From NCBI GenBank assembly GCA_963674735.2, contig CAXXQS010000001.1:96001-160000 (forward strand): a stretch of 64,000 nt of DNA, written 5' to 3'. Positions 53,677-63,680 of this stretch are shown piece by piece. The position numbers and the translations under genes are program-made. Source of the DNA: Myxococcota bacterium (GTDB lineage Bacteria > Myxococcota_A > SURF-8). The notes under the pieces are model-generated. The model saw only the letters and a program-made list of their open reading frames with translations, searched no databases and was not told where the DNA came from. Within the stretch, counting starts at the first letter, position 1; every line of letters starts with the position of its first letter.

Positions 53677-56600
53677 ATGGCGAAAACGAAAACCCAAGCG
53701 ACGAATCAAATAACAGCCACCCGATCGGGTAAGGACAAAGGCTTCGTCATCGAGAAGCCGGTCAAGCTCTTGAATAAGCAGATAGGCATTGATACGAAAA
53801 AATTCTTTGTGCATGTCGGCCAAGCGGCGGCAGCATTTATCGGTGGTGGCCCTTCAAGCTCAATACCGAAATTATTGGAAGCCGCCTCTGCTTTCAGCTT
53901 AAAGACAACACCGGAAGAACGCGCCTGGGTGTTGGTGCAACGTTCGATGGGACGCGCCCTGAAAGATCTCGTGGAAGAACAGGTCGGCGAACTTGATCTT
54001 GAACGTCTTGAACAAGCGGTGGAGATTGCCGATAAACTCGATTACGGGCTTGAAACTGAAACCGTCGAAATCGACACCCGGTTTTTCGACAATCCCGGCG
54101 CGTGCAGGTATGTCGAGATGATGCGGCCCGTTTTCGAAAGCTGGCTACTCGCCAGCGGCATGGATTCGGCTCGGGCGGAAAATACCGCACGGCGGCTGCC
54201 GTCCTTTTTTAACTCTGCGATCCATCACGAGTTGTATGAAAATGCGGGCAATTACGCCATGATCGTTGAGGCTTTCGACTCCCTCGCTTTCACGGCTGTT
54301 CAGCACGATGCAGATTGGCGGCGCTACCGGGCCAAACTGATGCGGCAAGTGGAAGAAAGCATGCTCGGCGAAGCCTTCGGCCTGAAGGATATCTTTATCG
54401 AGCTTCGGGCTTACTACAAGGAATCCGCGAAAACGAAAAACGAACCCCCATCCAAGCGACTTCTTGCACGCGATATGGACGATGAGAATGATAAGAAGGA
54501 AACGCGACATGTCGTCGATTTGCACGACCACGTTCGCTCCTGGATTGAACAAAGAAGCCAAAAGGATGCATTACGAGTCATCAGTGGTGGGCCCGGCAGC
54601 GGGAAATCTTCGTTTGCCAAAATGCTGGCGGCCGAGCTGGCGGCGGAAAATCGCCTTGTGCTATATATTCCCTTGCACAACATGAATCCTAAAAGCGACC
54701 TCGCCGATTCGGTCGGGGATTTCCTGCATGAGTATGACGACTTCAGGGAGAATCCACTCAGCGTTCCGCAAAGCGACCCGATCGTGCTGCTTTTCGATGG
54801 CTTGGATGAGCTGTCCGAGCGCGGCCGCGCCGGGTATGAGGCCGCCAAGCAATTTATCGAAAAACTGCTGGTGAAGCTGCACCAGAAAAATGATCAAAAA
54901 TGCCAGTGTCAAGCCTTGGTGCTGGGGCGGGATCTCTCGATACAGGCGCAAGATTATTTCTTGAAGAAGGAAAAGACCCTCCATTTATTACCTCTTTGGA
55001 TGACGGAGAAGGAACGTGAGACATTTGTCGATAGGAGAAAGAGACTTGAACACGACTTTCGGCTGGATTGGTGGGCGGCCTATTGCCGCTTGATGCAACA
55101 CGTTGATCCCGAAATGCCGGAATTCTTGAGGCGGGAAGAGCTGGAGGAAATCACGGCGGAACCTTTGCTCATTTACTTGGCGGCACAAACCTTTTTTGAT
55201 GAAAGAATCGATTTCACCCAAACCGTTAGTGTTAACCAGATTTACGGAGCCATGCTGGAATATGTTTGGGAGCGTGGATATGAAGGCCGTCAAGAAGGTC
55301 GGCGGCACAGAGTGATCGATGAATTTGAATTGAAACAAGAGGAATTCACGGCGATCATGCAGGAGGTGGGTGTGGCCGCCTGGCAGGGCCAGGGCCGAAA
55401 AGCCACAACCGAGGCGATCCATCAGCGTTGTGCCCCCAGCCTACAAAAAAAGTTCGAGCGCTTCGCCGATGACGCGCAGAGCGGCGTTTTGCGATTGCTC
55501 ACCGCTTTTTATCTGCGGCGCACGGCCGAGGACCGCGGCGACAACGTGATCGAATTCACGCACAAGAGCTTCGGTGAATATTTGACGGCAAGAAGGATCG
55601 TGCGGCAGTTGTACACCATGGTTGAACAATTGAAAATGCGTGAGCAAGATCAATATGGAAACAATGGTTGGGATGCGGCGGAGGCTTTGTGTAAATGGAT
55701 CGAGTTGACGGGGCCGACCGCCATGGATCGCGATCTTTACCGTTTTGTCGATCGTGAAATCGAATTGGATTATAAGCGCGATCCGGAAATGATCGAGAAT
55801 TGCCAGGAACAGATCGTCAAGTTGATGAACGTTCATCTTCGATACGGCATGCCGATGCAGGATTTGAAACCACGCCTTCCAAAATATCAGGAGGAAACGC
55901 GGCAGGCCAGAAACGCCGATGAAGCCCTGCTGGCCCTTCATTGTGCATGTGCGAAAAGAACGGGAACGTTAAGCCAAATCAAGTGGCCGGAGAAAACGAG
56001 CGCCGGTGCGTGGCTGAGTCGCTTGCAACCTCAGCGATTGGACCTAACAACCACATTAGCTTATGACTGTTTCTCGGATTTGGATTTTTCGCAGCAATGT
56101 TTTGATTTTGCCAATTTCTATAGGGCAAACATACAAAGAAGTAAATTTACTCTATGTTTTATGCTTTTTGCTTCGCTTGTAGATTGTCACGCTTTAAAGG
56201 CACATTTGGAGGTCGCAAATTTATTTGAAGCAAAAATGAAACGCGCGAATTTAAAAGGCGCGTATTTGGATGGTGCGAATATGATTCGCGCGAATTTAAG
56301 TGATGCAAAATTGAATGGTGCGAATTTAAGGGATACAAAATTGAATAGTGCGAATTTGAGAGGCGCGAATTTAAGGGATGCAAAATTGAATGGTGCGAAT
56401 TTAAGGGATGCAAAAATGGGTTACGCGGATTTGGGTTACGCGGATTTGGAAGGCGCGGATTTGGAAGGTGCGCAATTGGAAATCGCGATTTTGGAAGATG
56501 CGAATTTGAGCGATGCGAATTTGTGGGGTGCAAATTTGAGGGATGCGAATTTGAGGGACGCGAATTTGGAAGGCGCGAATTTGGTAAACGCGAATTTGGA

Positions 56601-56739
56601 ACGTGCGAATTTGGGACGCGCGGATTTGAGCGGCGCGGATTTGAGAGGCGCGAATTTGGAAGGCGCGAATTTCGAGGGTGCGAATTTGACCGGCACCATT
56701 CTGGATAAGAAGCGCAAGCCCCGAAAAAGCACCGACTAG
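53677..56739 (+). CDS. NACHT NTPase with C-terminal pentapeptide repeats
   Basis: Walker A GGPGSGKS, Walker B LLFDGLDEL, EPLL, FTHKSFGEYL; long A(N/D)LxG/D pentapeptide tail. Confidence 0.92.
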   Translation: MAKTKTQATNQITATRSGKDKGFVIEKPVKLLNKQIGIDTKKFFVHVGQAAAAFIGGGPSSSIPKLLEAASAFSLKTTPEERAWVLVQRSMGRALKDLVEEQVGELDLERLEQAVEIADKLDYGLETETVEIDTRFFDNPGACRYVEMMRPVFESWLLASGMDSARAENTARRLPSFFNSAIHHELYENAGNYAMIVEAFDSLAFTAVQHDADWRRYRAKLMRQVEESMLGEAFGLKDIFIELRAYYKESAKTKNEPPSKRLLARDMDDENDKKETRHVVDLHDHVRSWIEQRSQKDALRVISGGPGSGKSSFAKMLAAELAAENRLVLYIPLHNMNPKSDLADSVGDFLHEYDDFRENPLSVPQSDPIVLLFDGLDELSERGRAGYEAAKQFIEKLLVKLHQKNDQKCQCQALVLGRDLSIQAQDYFLKKEKTLHLLPLWMTEKERETFVDRRKRLEHDFRLDWWAAYCRLMQHVDPEMPEFLRREELEEITAEPLLIYLAAQTFFDERIDFTQTVSVNQIYGAMLEYVWERGYEGRQEGRRHRVIDEFELKQEEFTAIMQEVGVAAWQGQGRKATTEAIHQRCAPSLQKKFERFADDAQSGVLRLLTAFYLRRTAEDRGDNVIEFTHKSFGEYLTARRIVRQLYTMVEQLKMREQDQYGNNGWDAAEALCKWIELTGPTAMDRDLYRFVDREIELDYKRDPEMIENCQEQIVKLMNVHLRYGMPMQDLKPRLPKYQEETRQARNADEALLALHCACAKRTGTLSQIKWPEKTSAGAWLSRLQPQRLDLTTTLAYDCFSDLDFSQQCFDFANFYRANIQRSKFTLCFMLFASLVDCHALKAHLEVANLFEAKMKRANLKGAYLDGANMIRANLSDAKLNGANLRDTKLNSANLRGANLRDAKLNGANLRDAKMGYADLGYADLEGADLEGAQLEIAILEDANLSDANLWGANLRDANLRDANLEGANLVNANLERANLGRADLSGADLRGANLEGANFEGANLTGTILDKKRKPRKSTD
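56210..56700 (+). repeat. 15-bp periodic pentapeptide-coding repeat
   Basis: GCGAATTT(A/G) or GCGGATTTG recurring every 15 nt. Confidence 0.9.
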
Positions 56740-56860: not shown

Positions 56861-57775
56861 ATGATGAGCGGCAGCACGATTCTCGATCTGATCGGCAACA
56901 CTCCCTTGATCCGGGTGCCCAGCCTGATTTCCCAGCCCATTTACGGCAAGGCCGAATTCCTCAACCCCGGCGGGTCGGTGAAAGATCGCGTGGCCAAGCA
57001 TCTGATCGAATGCGCCGAAAAAGAGGGCCTGCTCAAGCCCGGCTCCATCATCGTCGAGGCCACCAGCGGCAACACCGGCATCGGTCTGGCGCTGGCGGGC
57101 GTGCAGAAGGGTTACAAGGTCGTCATCGTCATGCCCGAATCCATGAGCGAAGAACGCAAGAAAATCATCCGCGCGCTGGGGGCGGAGCTGGTGCCGACTC
57201 CGGCCGCCAAAAGCATCGGCGGTGCGGTGGCCAAGGCCGCCGAGATCCTGGCGCGCAACCCCAACGCCTGGCACGTCAACCAGTTCGGCAACCTGCACAA
57301 CCCGGAAATTCACTACCAGACCACCGGCCCGGAGATCTGGGAGCAGATGGACGGCCGCGTGGACGCGCTGGTGGCGGGCGTCGGATCGGGCGGCACGCTG
57401 CAGGGCGTGGGCAGCTTCCTCAAAGAACAAAATCCCGCCGTCAAGCTGATCGCCGTCGAGCCCGAAGGGGCCTCCGCGCTGCTGGGCGAAGAACCCGGCC
57501 TGCACAAAATCCACCAGATCCAGGGCATCGGCGATGGCTTCATCCCGGACGTGCTCGACACCTCGCTGTTTGACGACGTGCTGTGCGTCTCGGACGACGA
57601 CGCCATCTACACCACGCGCATGCTGGCGCGCCGCTGCGGTCTGCTGGTGGGCACCAGCTCCGGCGCGAACGTCTTCGCCGCCCGCAAGGTGGCCGAGGAC
57701 ATGGGCCCGGAAGCGCGCGTCGTCACCATCCTGGCCGACCGCGCCGAGCGCTATTTCTCCACCGCGCTGATCTGA
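56861..57775 (+). CDS. cysK: Cysteine synthase (O-acetylserine sulfhydrylase)
   Basis: IGNTPL, NPGGSVKDR, EATSGNTGIGLA, MPESMSEER, TTGPEI, GVGSGGT, IQGIG, SSGAN, ERYFST. Confidence 0.93.
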   Translation: MMSGSTILDLIGNTPLIRVPSLISQPIYGKAEFLNPGGSVKDRVAKHLIECAEKEGLLKPGSIIVEATSGNTGIGLALAGVQKGYKVVIVMPESMSEERKKIIRALGAELVPTPAAKSIGGAVAKAAEILARNPNAWHVNQFGNLHNPEIHYQTTGPEIWEQMDGRVDALVAGVGSGGTLQGVGSFLKEQNPAVKLIAVEPEGASALLGEEPGLHKIHQIQGIGDGFIPDVLDTSLFDDVLCVSDDDAIYTTRMLARRCGLLVGTSSGANVFAARKVAEDMGPEARVVTILADRAERYFSTALI

Positions 57776-57808: not shown

Positions 57809-57935
57809 TGTCAAGTCGGCTTGACAGGCGACCGACAATCTTGTCGTTTACGGCAATGTTAACAAATAATCATCTCAATAAAATCAATGGCTTGCGGACT
57901 TCCCTAAAGCGTGTAAGATTGGCTTGTCTTTTGCA
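57809..57935 (+). promoter_or_regulatory. Sigma54 promoter with IHF site and two palindromic upstream activator sites
   Basis: TGTCAAG-TCGG-CTTGACA (57809-57826); CGACAA-TC-TTGTCG (57833-57846); AATCAATGGCTTG matching the IHF consensus WATCAANNNNTTR (57882-57894); TGGC-TTGTCTT-TTGCA with GG-N10-GC spacing (57920-57935). Confidence 0.75.
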
Positions 57936-57998: not shown

Positions 57999-59135
57999 GT
58001 GATGAAGGTTATTTTACACCTCACGAAAAACTGCAATCTGCGTTGCCGCTACTGCTACGCGCCGGAAAAAGTAGACGAGCCGATGTCGCTGGAGGTGGCG
58101 CAAAAGGCCATCGATTTGGCCATCGAAACCGGCAAAACCAGCGCCTGCGTGTCGTTTTTCGGCGGCGAGCCACTGCTGCTTTTCGATCGCATGCAGGAGT
58201 TGACCGCCTATGCCGAGGCGCGCGGCGAAGAGAGCGGCACGGCCATGTACTTCCGGCTGTCCACCAACGGCACGCTGTTCACCGAAGAGAGCCTGGCTTT
58301 CTGTCGCGACCACAAAATTCTATTCGCCCTCTCGCTCGACGGCGACCGCGAGGCGCATAACGCCCAACGCGTCTTTCCCGACGGCACGGGCAGCTTCGAT
58401 GTCCTCGACGCCAAGCTGCCCATGATCCTGCATTACAACCCCTACACCGTCGTAACCAGCGTCATCACGCCGCCGACGGTGGGGCGCCTTTACGAATCGA
58501 TGGAGTATCTCTGGTCGCGCGGCCTGCGCTACGTCGTGCACCAACTCGACTATACCCATCCCGACTGGACCCCCGCGCATTTCGAGACGCTGGCGGAAAG
58601 CTACCGCAAGCTGGGTGCGTTTTACCTCGACCGCATGCGGGCGGGCGAGCGCTTTCATATGGGGCTGTTCGACGACAAGCTGAAGTCGCACACCCGCGAG
58701 CCGATCCGCTACGGGGCGATCTGCGATTTCGGGGCGAGGAAGGTCTCGGTGGCCCCCGACGGCACGATTTTCCCCTGCGTGCAGTTCGTCTCCGACCGCG
58801 ACGACGCCAAGCGTTACGCTATCGGACACGTGGAAAGCGGCTTTACGCCCCGGCGTCAGGAATTGATCACGCTCAACAAACGTCCGCGCCGTCCCTGCGA
58901 CAGTTGCGCCTTTCTGGGACGCTGCGCCAATTACTGCGGTTGCATGAGCTGGCAGTTGACCGGCCACGTGCTGGAAGTGCCGCCGATTCTATGCAGTCAT
59001 GAACGCATGCTCATCCCCATCGCCGACGAGCTGGGAACCCGCTTGTGGGAGGAGCGTAATCCGACGTTTCTAAATAAGCATTACAAGCATTTGCATCAGA
59101 TGATCGATCCGCAATCCCGGTATGCATTCGATTAA
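57999..59135 (+). CDS. Radical SAM/SPASM domain enzyme (peptide/protein maturase type)
   Basis: LHLTKNCNLRCRYCY, FFGGEPLL, STNGT, SLDG; SPASM cysteines CDFG...DGTIFPC...CDSC..GRC..YCGC...LC. Confidence 0.93.
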   Translation: MMKVILHLTKNCNLRCRYCYAPEKVDEPMSLEVAQKAIDLAIETGKTSACVSFFGGEPLLLFDRMQELTAYAEARGEESGTAMYFRLSTNGTLFTEESLAFCRDHKILFALSLDGDREAHNAQRVFPDGTGSFDVLDAKLPMILHYNPYTVVTSVITPPTVGRLYESMEYLWSRGLRYVVHQLDYTHPDWTPAHFETLAESYRKLGAFYLDRMRAGERFHMGLFDDKLKSHTREPIRYGAICDFGARKVSVAPDGTIFPCVQFVSDRDDAKRYAIGHVESGFTPRRQELITLNKRPRRPCDSCAFLGRCANYCGCMSWQLTGHVLEVPPILCSHERMLIPIADELGTRLWEERNPTFLNKHYKHLHQMIDPQSRYAFD

Positions 59136-59145
59136 GGGGGCTGCC

Positions 59146-60678
59146 ATGTCGCACACACCATTCAAAGTCAAACCCGTCAAACGCTATGGCGGGGCGCGTT
59201 ATCACTCGGAAGTCGGCACGGAGTTGACCGCGCGCGCCTGCTGGCTCTCGGCCATTGCCCCGGCCAAACTCGTGCGGGGAGCCGTGACCTTGCTTCTGGC
59301 CGCCAGTCTGGCACTGGGCGTGATGGCCTGCGGTGACGACACCACCATCCACATCAAACCCGGTGGCGGGGAGAACGTCGACGGCGATACCGACAGCGGC
59401 GAGTCGGGCGGAACGCCGCCTCCGCTGTTCTGCCTGGAAGAGGGCCTGATTTTCTGTGCCGATGAGGATAACGTGTGGTCCTGTGAAAACGGACTACCGG
59501 TGAAACGGGATTGCGACGAGGTCTGCCGGGAGGAACGCGGTTCCGAATATTACTCGATCCGGTGTGATGATGACGATCCGGAGGATCTGTGCCGCTGCAC
59601 CTACGACATTATGGAGGGCGAACCGGCGGAATGTGTGCCGGGAGACCTGCGCTGTCGCGACATATTCACTGCCGAAACGTGTTCGGACGGTTATTACGAG
59701 GCCATCAACTGCGATGTCTATTGCCAGGAGAACTACGGCTGGGAATACTATTCGATTGGCTGCGACAATGACAACCTCGACAATGCCTGTCAGTGCCAAT
59801 ATGGGATGACCGACGGCGAGGGGGTGCAATGCGAACCGGGAGACGTTCAATGTCGCAATGATAACACGGCTAAATTGTGCCCCAATTACTCTTATGTGGA
59901 GGTCGATTGCGATCTTTACTGCCAGCAAACTTACGGTTCGGATTACTACTCCATGGGCTGTGATGCCAATACTCCCGAGAACGTCTGCCTGTGCGAATAC
60001 GGTGTGACCGACGGCGAGCCGGCGGAATGTCAGCCGGGGGAGGCGTATTGTATCGATAACGACGAGATCGCCGTTTGCTCGGCGGACGACTACAGCTTCC
60101 ACCTCGAATTCTGTTCCGATTACTGCCGGACATATTACGGCAACGATTATTACTCCACCGGTTGCTATGAAAGCAACTACGACAATCCCTGCGGTTGCGA
60201 ATACGACATCGTCGACGGCGATATCGCGGAATGCTATGTCGGTGAAGAGGCCTGTGCGGCGGAGGGTGGCTTGTTGATGTGCATTCCCTATGGCGGGGAT
60301 GTGCCCGAAGGCCACGAGGGCGAAGCGGGTATGTGGGAATCCATCAGTTGCGACAGCTATTGCGTGGAGACCTACGGTGACGACTATTATTCGCCGATAG
60401 GTTGCCAGGCCGACGATCCGGACGACAACGGCGAGTTGTGCAGCTGTGAATACGGCGCGTTGGACGGTGTCGCGCCCAACGAATGCCTGCCCGACGAGGC
60501 TTATTGCGACCCCGACGACAACCTTGTGGCCTGCGACGGCGGAGAAGGCTGGGGCTATTGGGTCACCCAAAACTGCACGGACGCCTGCGCGGCGCTCGAT
60601 CCGCCGATGGTCTCCACCGGTTGCGACGCGGAAAATGCGGATAATCCCTGTTTGTGCGCCGAAGACGAGGATCGATGA
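59146..60678 (+). CDS. Cys-rich repeat lipoprotein with extended conserved leader (six 8-Cys modules); candidate radical SAM substrate
   Basis: Start ATG at 59146 (RBS AAGGGGG); leader MSHTPFKVKPVKRYGGARY...; lipobox VMAC with Cys62; six modules of roughly 65 aa or more. Confidence 0.85.
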   Translation: MSHTPFKVKPVKRYGGARYHSEVGTELTARACWLSAIAPAKLVRGAVTLLLAASLALGVMACGDDTTIHIKPGGGENVDGDTDSGESGGTPPPLFCLEEGLIFCADEDNVWSCENGLPVKRDCDEVCREERGSEYYSIRCDDDDPEDLCRCTYDIMEGEPAECVPGDLRCRDIFTAETCSDGYYEAINCDVYCQENYGWEYYSIGCDNDNLDNACQCQYGMTDGEGVQCEPGDVQCRNDNTAKLCPNYSYVEVDCDLYCQQTYGSDYYSMGCDANTPENVCLCEYGVTDGEPAECQPGEAYCIDNDEIAVCSADDYSFHLEFCSDYCRTYYGNDYYSTGCYESNYDNPCGCEYDIVDGDIAECYVGEEACAAEGGLLMCIPYGGDVPEGHEGEAGMWESISCDSYCVETYGDDYYSPIGCQADDPDDNGELCSCEYGALDGVAPNECLPDEAYCDPDDNLVACDGGEGWGYWVTQNCTDACAALDPPMVSTGCDAENADNPCLCAEDEDR

Positions 60679-60755
60679 CGGGTTCAGCCGGGACGCTCAG
60701 TGTGGATGGGTGAGCGGAGCTTGTAGACGGAGCGAAAAAGTAAAGGAACGCTGAT

Positions 60756-61745
60756 TTGTCACGCGATACATTCAAGCTGAAGCCCGTCAAACGCTATCAC
60801 GGGGCGCGTTATTATTCGGAAATGGGTCTCACGCTCCAGGCGCGCGCCTGCTGGCTGTCGACGATCGTCCCGGCCAGGCTTGCGCGGGGGGCCGTGACCT
60901 TGCTGCTGGCCGCCGGTCTGGCCTTCGGCGGTATGGGCTGTGAGGGGAAGTTAATCGAAGAAGTCGAACCGGACGGGGATCTGCCGCCCGTCAACAACGG
61001 AGTTTGCGAAGAAGGCGAAGTCCGATGCAACGATGAAACAACGGTCGGAGTCTGCCGCGATGGCCGTTTTCGGTTTCTGACCTGCAATAAATACTGCAGC
61101 AAATTCGTCAGTGATGAATATACCAGCCAAACGAATCGCTGTAGTGAAAGTGATCCGGAAAATCTGTGCAGTTGCGGTTTCGATTTCACTATCGGCGATG
61201 GAGAACCGGTTATGTGTAGGACCGGGGATATTATTTGCCACGAGGAGCAGACCATCGGAATTTGTGACAACCGCAATTTTTATCAATATACGGATTGCGG
61301 CCAATACTGCGAAGACAACTTCGGCAAAGGCTTTTGCCCCACCGTTTGCAAGGCCGACCAACCGGACAATCTCTGCGGTTGCCGCTACAACATCACCGAT
61401 GGCACGGCGCAAGAATGTGCGCCGGGATCGATCCGCTGCATGGACGATCACTATGGAAATAAAGATTGGGTGGGAATTTGCGTCGAGGGCCACTATCAGT
61501 ATCAGAAGTGCAAAAGCTATTGCATTGAAACGTTTGACCCCGGTTGGTATCCGCGCGATTGCGATGCCGACAAACCCGACGATTTTTGCGGCTGCCATCA
61601 AAAGACCGCGCCCGACGGGGATGAAGATACGGGAACGAATTTAGACGGTGACGCCGATACCGAATTGGAAGATGAGACGGATTTGGACGCGGAAGCGGGA
61701 TCCGAAGAGGATAGGGATACCCAAAGCGAAGCCGGGGAGTTATAA
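60756..61745 (+). CDS. Paralogous Cys-rich lipoprotein with the same leader (three 8-Cys modules)
   Basis: TTG start with RBS AAGGA; MSRDTFKLKPVKRYHGARY...; lipobox GMGC with Cys62; acidic DGD-containing tail. Confidence 0.85.
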   Translation: MSRDTFKLKPVKRYHGARYYSEMGLTLQARACWLSTIVPARLARGAVTLLLAAGLAFGGMGCEGKLIEEVEPDGDLPPVNNGVCEEGEVRCNDETTVGVCRDGRFRFLTCNKYCSKFVSDEYTSQTNRCSESDPENLCSCGFDFTIGDGEPVMCRTGDIICHEEQTIGICDNRNFYQYTDCGQYCEDNFGKGFCPTVCKADQPDNLCGCRYNITDGTAQECAPGSIRCMDDHYGNKDWVGICVEGHYQYQKCKSYCIETFDPGWYPRDCDADKPDDFCGCHQKTAPDGDEDTGTNLDGDADTELEDETDLDAEAGSEEDRDTQSEAGEL

Positions 61746-61787: not shown

Positions 61788-63680
61788 GTGATGAAACGGA
61801 TGATGATGTCGGGATTGTTGCTGCTGCTGTTGCTTGTTGTATTGGCGGCTTGCCTGGGTACCGAAGAGACGGTCAGCGGTAGCGACGGTGACGACCCCGA
61901 TGGCGATGACCCGGACGGCGACGACCCGGATGGCGACGACCCGGACGGCGACGAGCCGGATGGCCCCTGCGAAAAGAATTTCGACTGCATCCCCTCTCAA
62001 TATTGCGATTTCTGCGCGGCGTCCTCCTGTGCCAATTGCGACGACTGCCTGGCCCTGTGCGTGGATCATGGCTGCGGTACCGAGACGGAGAATACCTGCG
62101 GTCGGCCGCGCTCGGACTGTGTGGCGGGGCAGGTGTCGGTGATTCGCGACGGCTGCTGGGTCTGCGTCGACCGTGAAAGCTGCGCCTTTGTGCGTGATGC
62201 CCGCTGCGACGACGGCCTGCCGCTGCAGTGCAACAGTCCCACCCCCGAATGCGCCGCCGATGAAATCCTGGCGCATCAGCAAGGCTGCTATGTCTGCGTC
62301 AATCCCGATAACTGCGATCCGTGGAAAGAAACGGAGTGCGAAAGCGACCGCGATTGCTCGGCCGCCTACTACTGCGAAGAATGCTCCATGTCTTCCTGTC
62401 CGGACTGCGAGGACTGCATCGCCGGTTGCTGGCCGCATCTGTGTGAAACGGAATACGAGTTGCTGTGCGATATGGAGCGCCCCGCCTGCGGCGACGAAGG
62501 CGCGTCGGTGATTCGCGACGGTTGTTGGATCTGTGTGAATCGCGACAGCTGCGAACCGATCAACGGTGAGCACGATCCGAGTTGCGACGATGGCAGCGAG
62601 CCGTTATGCGACATGGTGGAACCGGTTTGCGACGGGCACGAAATCTTGGCCTACCGGAATAGCTGCTACCTCTGTGTCAATCCGGCTACCTGCGAGCCCT
62701 GGGGCGTGCCCAACTGCGCCGGCGATACGGATTGCCCGGTCGACCAATGGTGCAATGGCTGCGGATCGTCCTCCTGCCCGATCTGCGCCGATTGCGTGGC
62801 GGCCTGTGTGCCCCACGGTTGCGAAACGCAACCCGAAGCAACCTGCGATATGGCGCGCCCCGACTGCGGTGCAAGCGGTGTGGCGGTGATTCGCGACGGC
62901 TGCTGGATCTGTGTGAACCGCAGTACCTGTCAACCCACCGGCGGACACGATCCGAGCTGCGATGACGGCGCGCCGGTGACCTGCAACAGTCCGGCCCCCG
63001 AGTGCGGAACGTATGAAATTCTGGCTTATCAGGATGGCTGTCACGTCTGCGTGAATCCGGCCACCTGCAAACCCTGGGGTCAGGCGGGATGCGAGCACCA
63101 GGCCGATTGTCCGGTGGAGGATTACTGCGATCCTTGCGGCACCGCACCGTGTCCCGACTGCGATGCCTGTCTGCCCGCCTGCATGCCCCATGGTTGTCAG
63201 ACCGAGGCCGTGGCCACATGCAAAATGATGCGTCCCGATTGCGGGTTGGGAAAGGCGGCGGTGGTCAAGGACGGCTGCTGGGTTTGTGTGACCCTGGGCT
63301 CCTGTTCACCCACCCGCGACGAGCATTGCGACGACGGTACCGATCCTATTTGCAACATGGTCGAGCCCACCTGCGGCGAACATGAGATTCTGGCTTACCA
63401 GGATAACTGCTATGTCTGCGTCAATCCGCTCACCTGTAAACCCTGGGGGGAAAGCGGCTGCACGCACGACTATGATTGCGACGCGGCGCTTGCCTGTGAC
63501 GGCTGCGCGACCTCCTCCTGTCCTCTATGCGGCGATTGCGTGGCCGCTTGCGTGCCGCACGGTTGTCCCACCGAACCGGTTCCCGCCTGCTACATGATGC
63601 GTCCCGATTGCGATGCGGGCCAGGTGGCGGTGGTGCAGGATTTGTGCTGGGTCTGCGTGGACGACCAAACCTGCCAGTAA
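61788..63680 (+). CDS. Very Cys-rich repeat lipoprotein (about 4.5 units of 123-126 aa)
   Basis: Ordinary signal peptide with lipobox LAAC, (DGDDP)x4, then units of 20 Cys containing VIRDGCW.CV and EILAY...CY.CVNP.TC.PW. Confidence 0.88.
   Translation: MMKRMMMSGLLLLLLLVVLAACLGTEETVSGSDGDDPDGDDPDGDDPDGDDPDGDEPDGPCEKNFDCIPSQYCDFCAASSCANCDDCLALCVDHGCGTETENTCGRPRSDCVAGQVSVIRDGCWVCVDRESCAFVRDARCDDGLPLQCNSPTPECAADEILAHQQGCYVCVNPDNCDPWKETECESDRDCSAAYYCEECSMSSCPDCEDCIAGCWPHLCETEYELLCDMERPACGDEGASVIRDGCWICVNRDSCEPINGEHDPSCDDGSEPLCDMVEPVCDGHEILAYRNSCYLCVNPATCEPWGVPNCAGDTDCPVDQWCNGCGSSSCPICADCVAACVPHGCETQPEATCDMARPDCGASGVAVIRDGCWICVNRSTCQPTGGHDPSCDDGAPVTCNSPAPECGTYEILAYQDGCHVCVNPATCKPWGQAGCEHQADCPVEDYCDPCGTAPCPDCDACLPACMPHGCQTEAVATCKMMRPDCGLGKAAVVKDGCWVCVTLGSCSPTRDEHCDDGTDPICNMVEPTCGEHEILAYQDNCYVCVNPLTCKPWGESGCTHDYDCDAALACDGCATSSCPLCGDCVAACVPHGCPTEPVPACYMMRPDCDAGQVAVVQDLCWVCVDDQTCQ

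Follow-up and report, generated by a model that had tools for sequence, protein, structure and literature searches.

A conserved N-terminal extension of Myxococcota lipoproteins as a candidate docking leader for a neighbouring radical SAM/SPASM enzyme

We analysed a 64,000-nucleotide stretch of the genome of a Myxococcota bacterium (assembly GCA_963674735.2, contig CAXXQS010000001.1, positions 96,001 to 160,000; hereafter the window). In this stretch, a gene for a radical S-adenosylmethionine (SAM) enzyme with a SPASM domain is directly followed by genes for two cysteine-rich lipoproteins, precursors 1 and 2, that share a 62-residue leader made of an N-terminal extension and a signal peptide. 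We read the extension as a docking leader that stands in front of the Sec/lipoprotein signal peptide and recruits the neighbouring radical SAM enzyme before export. We give this reading a probability of about 0.6. A docking leader with a variable core was already the original prediction, made from the window alone. At the level of sequence it is now backed by the architecture of the leader, by the co-occurrence of leader and enzyme found with profile searches, by purifying selection on the leader and by its modular fusion to unrelated mature parts, to which a predicted complex can be added.

The two leaders (59146-59331 and 60756-60941) align without gaps over their 62 residues. Forty-three residues are identical when the sequences are translated literally, and 44 when the TTG start of precursor 2 is read as Met, as originally counted; the underlying DNA agrees at 139 of 186 bases. 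In a BLASTP comparison of six-frame open reading frames (ORFs) from 11 loci and the last 14 kb of the window, leader 1 retrieved leader 2 with E = 1.5e-27, well outside what chance would give. Both mature parts are built from a homologous repeat of about 65 residues containing 8 Cys, present in six copies in precursor 1 and three in precursor 2. They are 34% identical over 195 aligned residues, and the first high-scoring BLASTP segment of the pair, leader included, shows 39% identity over 294 columns. The original remark that little except Cys spacing is common to the mature parts was therefore too strong, the repeats being homologous, but the leader (71% identity) is clearly more alike.

Neither precursor matched a family in Pfam (at E <= 0.01) or NCBIfam. 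The AlphaFold2 (AF2) model of precursor 2 has a mean pLDDT (predicted local distance difference test) of 73, with compact repeats at about 85-93. A Foldseek search of this model against the Protein Data Bank (PDB) gave 0 matches at E <= 0.001, and a protein atlas returned solely weak unnamed Myxococcota clusters (score <= 0.83). Repeat ends carry a linker, Y-x-hydrophobic-x-[DE]-G (YDITDG, YGVTDG, YNITDG, YQVTDG), in Cys-rich as well as Cys-free members of the family (window 59332-60678 and 60942-61745; protein P0008; locus L043, 1227-1919, minus strand). Its counts are far over shuffle expectation for a motif that was defined post hoc and is a lead only.

The leader has a three-part organization. 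A tag of about 23 residues (F-K-x-x-P-V-K-R-Y-x-x-A-R-Y-x-S-E) is followed by a helix (ARACWLSW), then by a Sec-type lipoprotein signal peptide with a conserved Cys. F6, Y19, W33 and L50 are invariant in 22 leaders, and Y14, A17, S21, L34, P39, L49 and L51 are nearly so. ARACW had been taken to be invariant as a whole. This holds for W33, whereas the Cys position is occupied by C, T, L, A, M or V among the 22 leaders, which makes this Cys unlikely as a required modification site. Residues 24-43 are replaced by unrelated sequence in loci L027, L044 and L078, and the ARACWLSW helix is specific to this clade. In the AF2 model of precursor 2, residues 1-19 are mostly of low confidence, and helices are predicted at 24-37 and 40-56. 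The Cys at the lipobox position is kept in all 13 members from the uncultured Myxococcota class to which the genome belongs; 3 of the 22 leaders are without it. Other lipoproteins of the window had been described as having short signal peptides. This is right for the third lipoprotein of the row (61788-63680; about 22 residues), the sole one checked. Export of the window proteins by the twin-arginine translocation (Tat) pathway was considered and set aside, as no twin-arginine motif was seen by eye.

The extension is translated and under purifying selection. Each of the 13 genes that the family has in the class begins with a start codon at the corresponding place (M-x4-F), preceded by a purine-rich stretch resembling a Shine-Dalgarno sequence. 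The starts thus lie at the N-terminus of the extension and not near the hydrophobic region, a placement that would have refuted the original prediction by its own terms. Within the extension, synonymous differences are saturated (median proportion per site, pS, 0.73), the median non-synonymous proportion (pN) is 0.40, and 77 of 78 pairs have pN < pS. Together with the conserved starts, this rules out an untranslated extension and conservation at the DNA or RNA level. The signal-peptide part has the lowest non-synonymous divergence of the precursor (median pN 0.26). In 65 of the 78 pairs formed by the 13 members, the leaders are more alike than the mature parts are at their best local alignment (median identities 51% and 35%). 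The leader is not ahead in the closest orthologue pairs, precursor 1 with L021 (52% against 52%) and with L027 (44% for the leader, 45% for the mature part). Overall, a conserved N-terminal leader is joined to a variable C-terminal part, as in precursors of peptides that ribosomes synthesize and that are modified after translation (RiPPs). The hydrophobic core of the signal peptide, AVTLLLAAGLALG (59275-59331, 60885-60941 and orthologues), is the most conserved block of the precursor, which is odd for a signal peptide.

The distribution of the leader follows that of the enzyme. The source genome holds just the two window copies. A profile built from 22 leaders matched 7 of the 10 genomes of the class, and radical SAM orthologues with at least 56% identity occur in the same 7 genomes. 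Among the 391 genomes of the phylum outside the class (of 401), no true leader was found, a single marginal match covering the hydrophobic region only. As for the remaining genomes of the class, G007 encodes a 41% homologue of the enzyme and, after it, an acidic lipoprotein that has no Cys and bears a degenerate tag (KLVKVVSYNAAYP), and G002 and G005 (86% and 79% complete) have only relatives of 29-31% identity. The concern that the motif might be common in genomes lacking this radical SAM family is thus not borne out, the leader being confined, among the 401 genomes searched, to seven that bear the enzyme.

Eight of the 13 class leader genes lie directly 3' of a radical SAM orthologue (55-68% identity). 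One more is the second precursor gene of the window row, and four are found elsewhere in genomes that have the enzyme. The precursor gene hence adjoins that of the presumed modifying enzyme, as is expected of RiPP loci. The radical SAM enzyme and the leader protein are the only genes common to 12 compared loci, in which no protease, transporter or protein with a RiPP recognition element (RRE) is conserved. On a larger scale, a two-row leader profile gave 19 matches at E <= 0.001 among 1.84 billion representative proteins. Seventeen of them sit at residues 1-63, and we take the other two, internal in very long proteins, to be spurious. A word-indexed protein search with residues 1-62 found the query alone. 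Five related loci, found with a 9-row subset of the leader alignment, all come from Myxococcota metagenome-assembled genomes (MAGs), and 6 other genomes, from 3 families, carry the leader with 37-60% identity. The leader proteins as a family lie outside Pfam and NCBIfam coverage.

What follows the leader is variable. Among 13 fetched database proteins, the mature part consists of Cys-rich repeats in nine, of Cys-free acidic D/G/Y repeats in two (P0008, P0016) and of other sequence without the lipobox Cys in two (P0015, P0018). P0016 is identical to the protein of locus L026, whose gene adjoins a radical SAM orthologue (55% identity).

The tag extends beyond this leader family. Metagenomic contigs were scanned with the radical SAM alignment, and 80 loci were kept out of 499 relatives, 20 with at least 34% identity to the enzyme and 60 below. 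A tag core, [VIL]-K-x-Y-x4-Y-P, followed by a signal peptide adjoins 11 of the 20 closer homologues, either downstream (L044, L045, L046, L047, L049, L051, L056, L078, L121) or upstream (L048, L082). The nine untagged ones comprise four loci with full flanks (L050, L052, L055, L110) and five contigs cut close to the gene. None of the 60 homologues below 34% identity has the strict pattern beside it. Away from the downstream neighbours, the pattern occurs in one of 2254 ORFs, which is the upstream neighbour of the enzyme in L082. Behind the tag, these distant partners have mature parts with no relation to the Cys-rich repeats and with no NCBIfam or Pfam family (all matches at E >= 0.03 and far below the cut-offs). 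Only the first 23 or so residues of the leader recur in the distant systems, and the tag is found ahead of lipoprotein, signal peptidase I-like and Tat-like signals. The last type was seen in loci L138, L139 and L143. There, upstream neighbours of 33-37% homologues combine a Y-x4-Y-P-like N-terminus with a Tat-like twin arginine (RRAVLAGLG, RRDFLRLLG) and a lipobox, which suggests that these systems export proteins that are already folded or modified.

The enzyme itself opens directly with CX3CX2C (C12, C16 and C19, residues 12-19) and so does not have the N-terminal RRE of CteB. In agreement with this, RRE-bearing models and CteB align to it only from their residues 79-99 onward. Its best NCBIfam match is the ranthipeptide maturase PapB (NF047865; 204.4 bits, below the cut-off of 340). 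Many other peptide-modifying SPASM families of NCBIfam match as well, none reaching its own cut-off. In Pfam, it matches Radical_SAM and Fer4_12, the SPASM model not being among the matches. The SPASM motif combines CX3CX2C with a C-terminal CX9-15GX4C ... CX2CX5CX3C ... C. In the window enzyme, it is present as C12/C16/C19, C242-x12-G255-x4-C260, C300-x2-C303-x5-C309-x3-C313 and C332, all invariant in 8 homologues; C315 is also counted among the SPASM cysteines. A profile of 8 homologues retrieved CteB as the best PDB relative (5wgg, E = 1e-53, aligned from chain residue 99, after the CteB RRE), then anSME (4k37, E = 1e-27). Where close relatives are named in the sources, they are merely called radical SAM protein or uncharacterized protein.

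The C-terminus of the enzyme forms a tail, HERMLIPIADE.G..LW...NP.FL.KHY, that is conserved and lies mostly past the homology to PapB (which ends at residue 324) and CteB (at 336). A long tail with F-x-x-K-[HF]-Y is present in 9 of 9 listed tag-associated homologues, and 6 of 6 listed untagged ones have short tails. In the distant homologues L046-L051 and L082, the C-terminus carries K-[HF]-Y-x4-[YF]-P (for example KHYNPLYP), which resembles the K-x-Y-x4-Y-P of the tag; the window tail (59067-59132) retains only K-H-Y of it. This likeness may mean that the enzyme carries an internal mimic of the leader in its tail, or it may be accidental. In locus L017 (G009:C33, 6783-7933), the orthologue is split into two overlapping ORFs of 250 and 171 residues, through either a frameshift or faulty assembly. 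Downstream of it the leader gene is whole, and two further leader genes lie elsewhere in that genome.

Without an RRE in the enzyme, docking must differ from that of canonical RiPP systems. We modelled the enzyme, from an 8-row alignment, in complex with leader residues 1-45, from a 22-row alignment. The interface score (ipSAE) was 0.75, 0.78 and 0.72 in three runs, and 0.02 for the best of 3 controls. The pLDDT of the partner was 55-57, and the runs agreed in at least 68% of contacts. In the calibration of the tool, which holds only roughly with custom alignments, 58 of 80 solved complexes reach the mark, as against 2 of 110 mismatched pairs. The predicted interface joins leader residues 4-23 to enzyme residues 190-195, 231-235, 299-305, 327-351 and 362-365. 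It corresponds to the SPASM region around C300, C303 and C332 together with the clade-specific tail. All listed contacts are at residue 190 or later, so none involves the motif of the SAM cluster (12-19). From this model, we infer that the leader binds the enzyme. A docking extension of about 44 residues had been proposed. Docking as such is supported by the model, but the predicted contacts with the enzyme are limited to roughly the first 23 residues. The confident interface ends at residue 23 and leaves the conserved hydrophobic core of the signal peptide unexplained.

We infer an order of events, a mode of leader removal and a chemistry as follows. The cassette would consist of two parts, an RRE-less radical SAM/SPASM enzyme and, after it, the protein substrates. 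In the cytoplasm, the tag would bind two parts of the enzyme, the outer SPASM face and the C-terminal tail. This docking would keep the precursor at the enzyme, and perhaps off the export machinery, until the radical modification has been made. After export, lipoprotein signal peptidase would cut off the tag and the signal peptide together, and a dedicated leader protease or transporter would not be required. For the Cys/Asp/Glu-rich repeats of the window, a tentative guess is that the enzyme makes thioether cross-links from Cys to Asp or Glu, closing small rings. The guess is based on the homology to PapB, CteB and QhpD and on C-x-P-G-[DE], which opens most repeats and is a motif defined after being seen. 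It is held low because some family members have no cysteine.

The same elements may form part of a wider route of radical maturation before export. A tag, P-[VIL]-K-x-Y-x4-Y-P, placed before Sec, lipoprotein or Tat signals would be read by the tail of an RRE-less SPASM enzyme, the enzyme would modify whole secreted proteins of unrelated folds, and signal peptidase would remove the tag. The tail may serve as a placeholder for the leader. We see this generalization as plausible, at somewhat less than even odds.

A number of observations weigh against the docking-leader reading. The enzyme does not have the RRE that normally reads leaders, and the score of the complex is the model's own confidence, not a measurement. 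Part of the 71% identity of the window leaders may come from a more recent common origin or from gene conversion of the 5' ends. Lipoboxes follow the pattern [LVI][ASTVI][GAS]C. The window signal peptides have an n-region and an h-region, and their VMAC and GMGC (G at -3) fit this pattern loosely. The four untagged metagenomic homologues with full flanks also count here. So do 21 radical SAM loci from other Myxococcota genomes (33-42% identity, 1.5-kb flanks), for which regular expressions were run on all and neighbours were read by eye in 8. A tag-like neighbour was recognised in 5 of the 21 (L134, L136, L137, L138, L139), with 2 doubtful (L131, L143). On the substrate side, the mature parts are Cys-rich, Cys-free acidic or of alpha/beta type and show no common target residue. 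Cys-free substrates adjoin radical SAM homologues (L026, 55%; L043, 41%), which argues against the thioether as a general reaction, and CX3[DE] in general was not enriched above composition, the positional C-x-P-G-[DE] alone standing out. Such diversity of the mature parts fits a promiscuous enzyme less comfortably than a target inside the tag.

The tag itself could indeed be the substrate, with the radical SAM enzyme modifying N-terminal residues such as Tyr14, Tyr19 or Lys12. The modified tag would then be the cytoplasmic part of an uncleaved signal anchor, or a small peptide freed with the signal peptide. The N-terminal motif is the only element common to all partners of the enzyme clade, whose mature parts are unrelated, and within it F6 and Y19 are invariant and Y14 nearly so. 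Many SPASM enzymes cross-link aromatic residues (PqqE, StrB and cyclophane formers, in part also among the NCBIfam matches), and enterococcal sex pheromones, which are cut from lipoprotein signal peptides, are a precedent for the release. We nevertheless consider a substrate tag unlikely. The modelled tag lies on the SPASM periphery and the tail, with no contact before residue 190. Tandem precursors and unlinked copies with different mature parts would be redundant if the tag alone counted, the repeats stay intact and long, the Tyr spacing is one residue shorter in G007, and the first Tyr is Ile in L137.

The place of the extension, immediately before the signal peptide, is also what one would expect if it acted on the secretion machinery, in export control or targeting. 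The enzyme would then modify the mature part leaderless, as its RRE-less relative anSME does with sulfatases. An h-region that is the most conserved part of the precursor (median pN 0.26) is unusual, the helix-turn-helix that AF2 predicts (24-37, 40-56) could mask the signal, and conserved signal-peptide extensions occur elsewhere, as in the extended signal peptide region (ESPR) of autotransporters. The tag, in contrast, tracks the radical SAM clade and not the mature family or the signal type, it was not found in the 391 phylum genomes outside the class, and the complex model passes its controls. No match to the Pfam ESPR family (PF13018) was obtained with the precursors at E <= 0.01. A role in export control thus seems improbable to us. 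Finally, the leader likeness might be a mere trace of recent tandem duplication or gene conversion, without function. The genes are in tandem, and the window leaders are separated by a dS of 0.59 (dN 0.22, omega 0.38), to be compared with saturated synonymous sites in the mature parts (pS 0.845). This last explanation, which we hold to be very improbable, is already contradicted by the comparison across genomes. Six other genomes from 3 families retain the leader (37-60% identity), its synonymous sites are saturated, 77 of 78 pairs show a pN smaller than pS, and it is joined to unrelated mature parts. A docking leader remains our preferred reading.

Several known systems share parts of this organization. 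PapB, which makes freyrasin, and CteB, which acts on the SCIFF peptide, have the radical SAM core and the full SPASM Cys set in common with the window enzyme. PapB substrates are modified at CX3D sites, which C-x-P-G-[DE] of the window resembles. The RRE of CteB, of about 98 residues, is missing in the window enzyme, which has an extra C-terminal tail. In addition, PapB and CteB substrates are short peptides with dedicated transporters, whereas those of the window are proteins of 329-510 residues with export signals. The sulfatase-maturing enzymes anSME and AtsB are RRE-less SPASM enzymes that act on whole proteins before export, as we propose for the window enzyme. However, anSME reads a motif inside the mature sulfatase and needs no N-terminal tag. 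The window enzyme scores 80 bits against TIGR03942 (anSME; cut-off 349), and the sulfatase motif was not seen by eye.

QhpD makes Cys-Asp/Glu thioethers in QhpC, a periplasmic subunit that bears an N-terminal leader and uses a dedicated protease and a transporter. The window enzyme reaches 136 bits against TIGR03906 (QhpD; cut-off 453), and no genes for a protease or transporter of the QhpC type are conserved in loci of the window type. A SPASM enzyme is likewise paired with a lipoprotein in Bacteroides (TIGR04133, rSAM_w_lipo, with TIGR04134, lipo_with_rSAM). The window enzyme scores 30.1 bits against TIGR04133, below its cut-off of 425. TIGR04134 does not match the precursors, and its sole match in the genome (E = 0.99) lies elsewhere.

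The cassette looks like a new form of leader-guided protein maturation by a radical SAM enzyme, and CrpC/CrpA is the closest published case. According to sections of the report on that system, CrpC of Methanococcus voltae (TIGR04463) is a SPASM enzyme encoded beside large Cys-rich repeat proteins, and it installs ranthionine links on protein (PMC13692751). CrpA and CrpB share a near-identical N-terminus of 47 residues, which aids engagement of the enzyme, and diverge after it (PMC13692751). The window is similar in that a SPASM gene adjoins two Cys-rich repeat proteins with a shared N-terminus. In contrast, CrpC as described there has an RRE and the window enzyme has none (PMC13692751). The window enzyme scores 53 bits against TIGR04463, below the cut-off of 525, and its substrate repeats are unrelated to those of CrpA as presented in these sections. 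Its hosts are bacterial (Myxococcota MAGs), and some members are Cys-free. The sections on CrpA make no mention of a signal peptide, whereas the window leader precedes a lipoprotein signal peptide (PMC13692751).

Bufferins, RiPPs made by MNIO enzymes, are relevant for the export side. In the passages that deal with their precursors, these are described as carrying Sec signals and being modified in the cytoplasm, which is deemed highly unusual, and the question of premature export is raised (PMC12452194). About 16% of Buf2 carry lipoprotein signals, and some bufferin precursors are long (PMC12452194). As these passages have it, the bufferin enzyme is an MNIO with a DUF2063 partner and the signal peptide replaces the leader. 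The window enzyme is instead a radical SAM enzyme, and a separate tag stands ahead of the signal peptide. The full-text literature searched, supplementary data of PMC13692751 excluded, contained no description of the tag or the cassette.

The features of the locus are collected in Table 1. Four genes on the forward strand follow each other in a row (378, 510, 329 and 630 residues), with gaps of 10 nt between the enzyme and precursor 1, 77 nt between the precursors and 42 nt before the third lipoprotein. Terminator-like sites were not above shuffle expectation (7 found, 7.5 expected), and a promoter scan gave a weak promoter-like site at 57841-57870. An operon is therefore proposed solely from strand and short gaps. 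The third lipoprotein (61788-63680) has a (DGDDP)n linker and a long repeat type, C-x-x-C-x-x-S-S-C-x-x-C-x-D-C. It matches no Pfam or NCBIfam family and has no clustered relative in the other 11 loci; we regard it as context, outside the conserved cassette. On the 5' side, a PLP-dependent (PALP) enzyme (56861-57775, forward strand) lies immediately before the cassette. Further 5' is a NACHT-NTPase with an NNH3 N-terminal domain and a long pentapeptide-repeat C-terminus (53677-56739, forward strand). Neither gene is kept beside the cassette in the other genomes compared.

Table 1 Features of the radical SAM/lipoprotein locus, in window coordinates
Feature	Coordinates	Strand	Evidence or remark
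Radical SAM/SPASM maturase, 378 aa, without N-terminal RRE	57999..59135	+	NCBIfam, Pfam and PDB profile matches
C-terminal tail of the enzyme, residues 334-378: HERMLIPIADELG..LW...NP.FL.KHY...	58998..59132	+	predicted leader-docking surface
Shine-Dalgarno-like AAGGGGG	59134..59140	+	5 nt 5' of the ATG at 59146; overlaps the enzyme stop codon (59133-59135)
Lipoprotein precursor 1 (510 aa), made of leader, signal peptide and six 8-Cys repeats of about 65 aa	59146..60678	+	
Docking tag (predicted) of precursor 1, residues 1-23: MSHTPFKVKPVKRYGGARYHSEV	59146..59214	+	complex model; leader conservation
Clade-specific middle helix of precursor 1, residues 24-43: GTELTARACWLSAIAPAKLV	59215..59274	+	AF2 model of the paralogue; alignment
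Signal-peptide h-region and lipobox-like VMAC of precursor 1, residues 44-62	59275..59331	+	Cys conservation
Lipoprotein precursor 2 (329 aa, start codon TTG), made of leader, signal peptide, three Cys-rich repeats and acidic tail	60756..61745	+	
Docking tag (predicted) of precursor 2, residues 1-23	60756..60824	+	alignment with precursor 1; AAAGGAA upstream
Middle helix and signal peptide of precursor 2, residues 24-62, ending in GMGC	60825..60941	+	alignment; AF2 helices 24-37 and 40-56
Third Cys-rich lipoprotein (630 aa) with another repeat type and an ordinary, short signal peptide; untagged	61788..63680	+	

To our knowledge, nearly all known leader-guided radical SAM chemistry concerns short peptides, and its use on whole proteins is just starting to be shown (CrpC/CrpA, 2026). 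The cassette described here would be a minimal two-gene system, with a docking tag placed before a lipoprotein signal peptide and with no RRE, dedicated protease or transporter. It bears on how premature export is avoided, a question left open in the parts of the bufferin literature that raise it (PMC12452194). If our reading is true, the SPASM domain together with the C-terminal tail would be a new surface for leader recognition, and the tag would be a short portable element to aim a radical enzyme at arbitrary secreted proteins. It would also help to search uncultured Myxococcota and other phyla for modified surface proteins.

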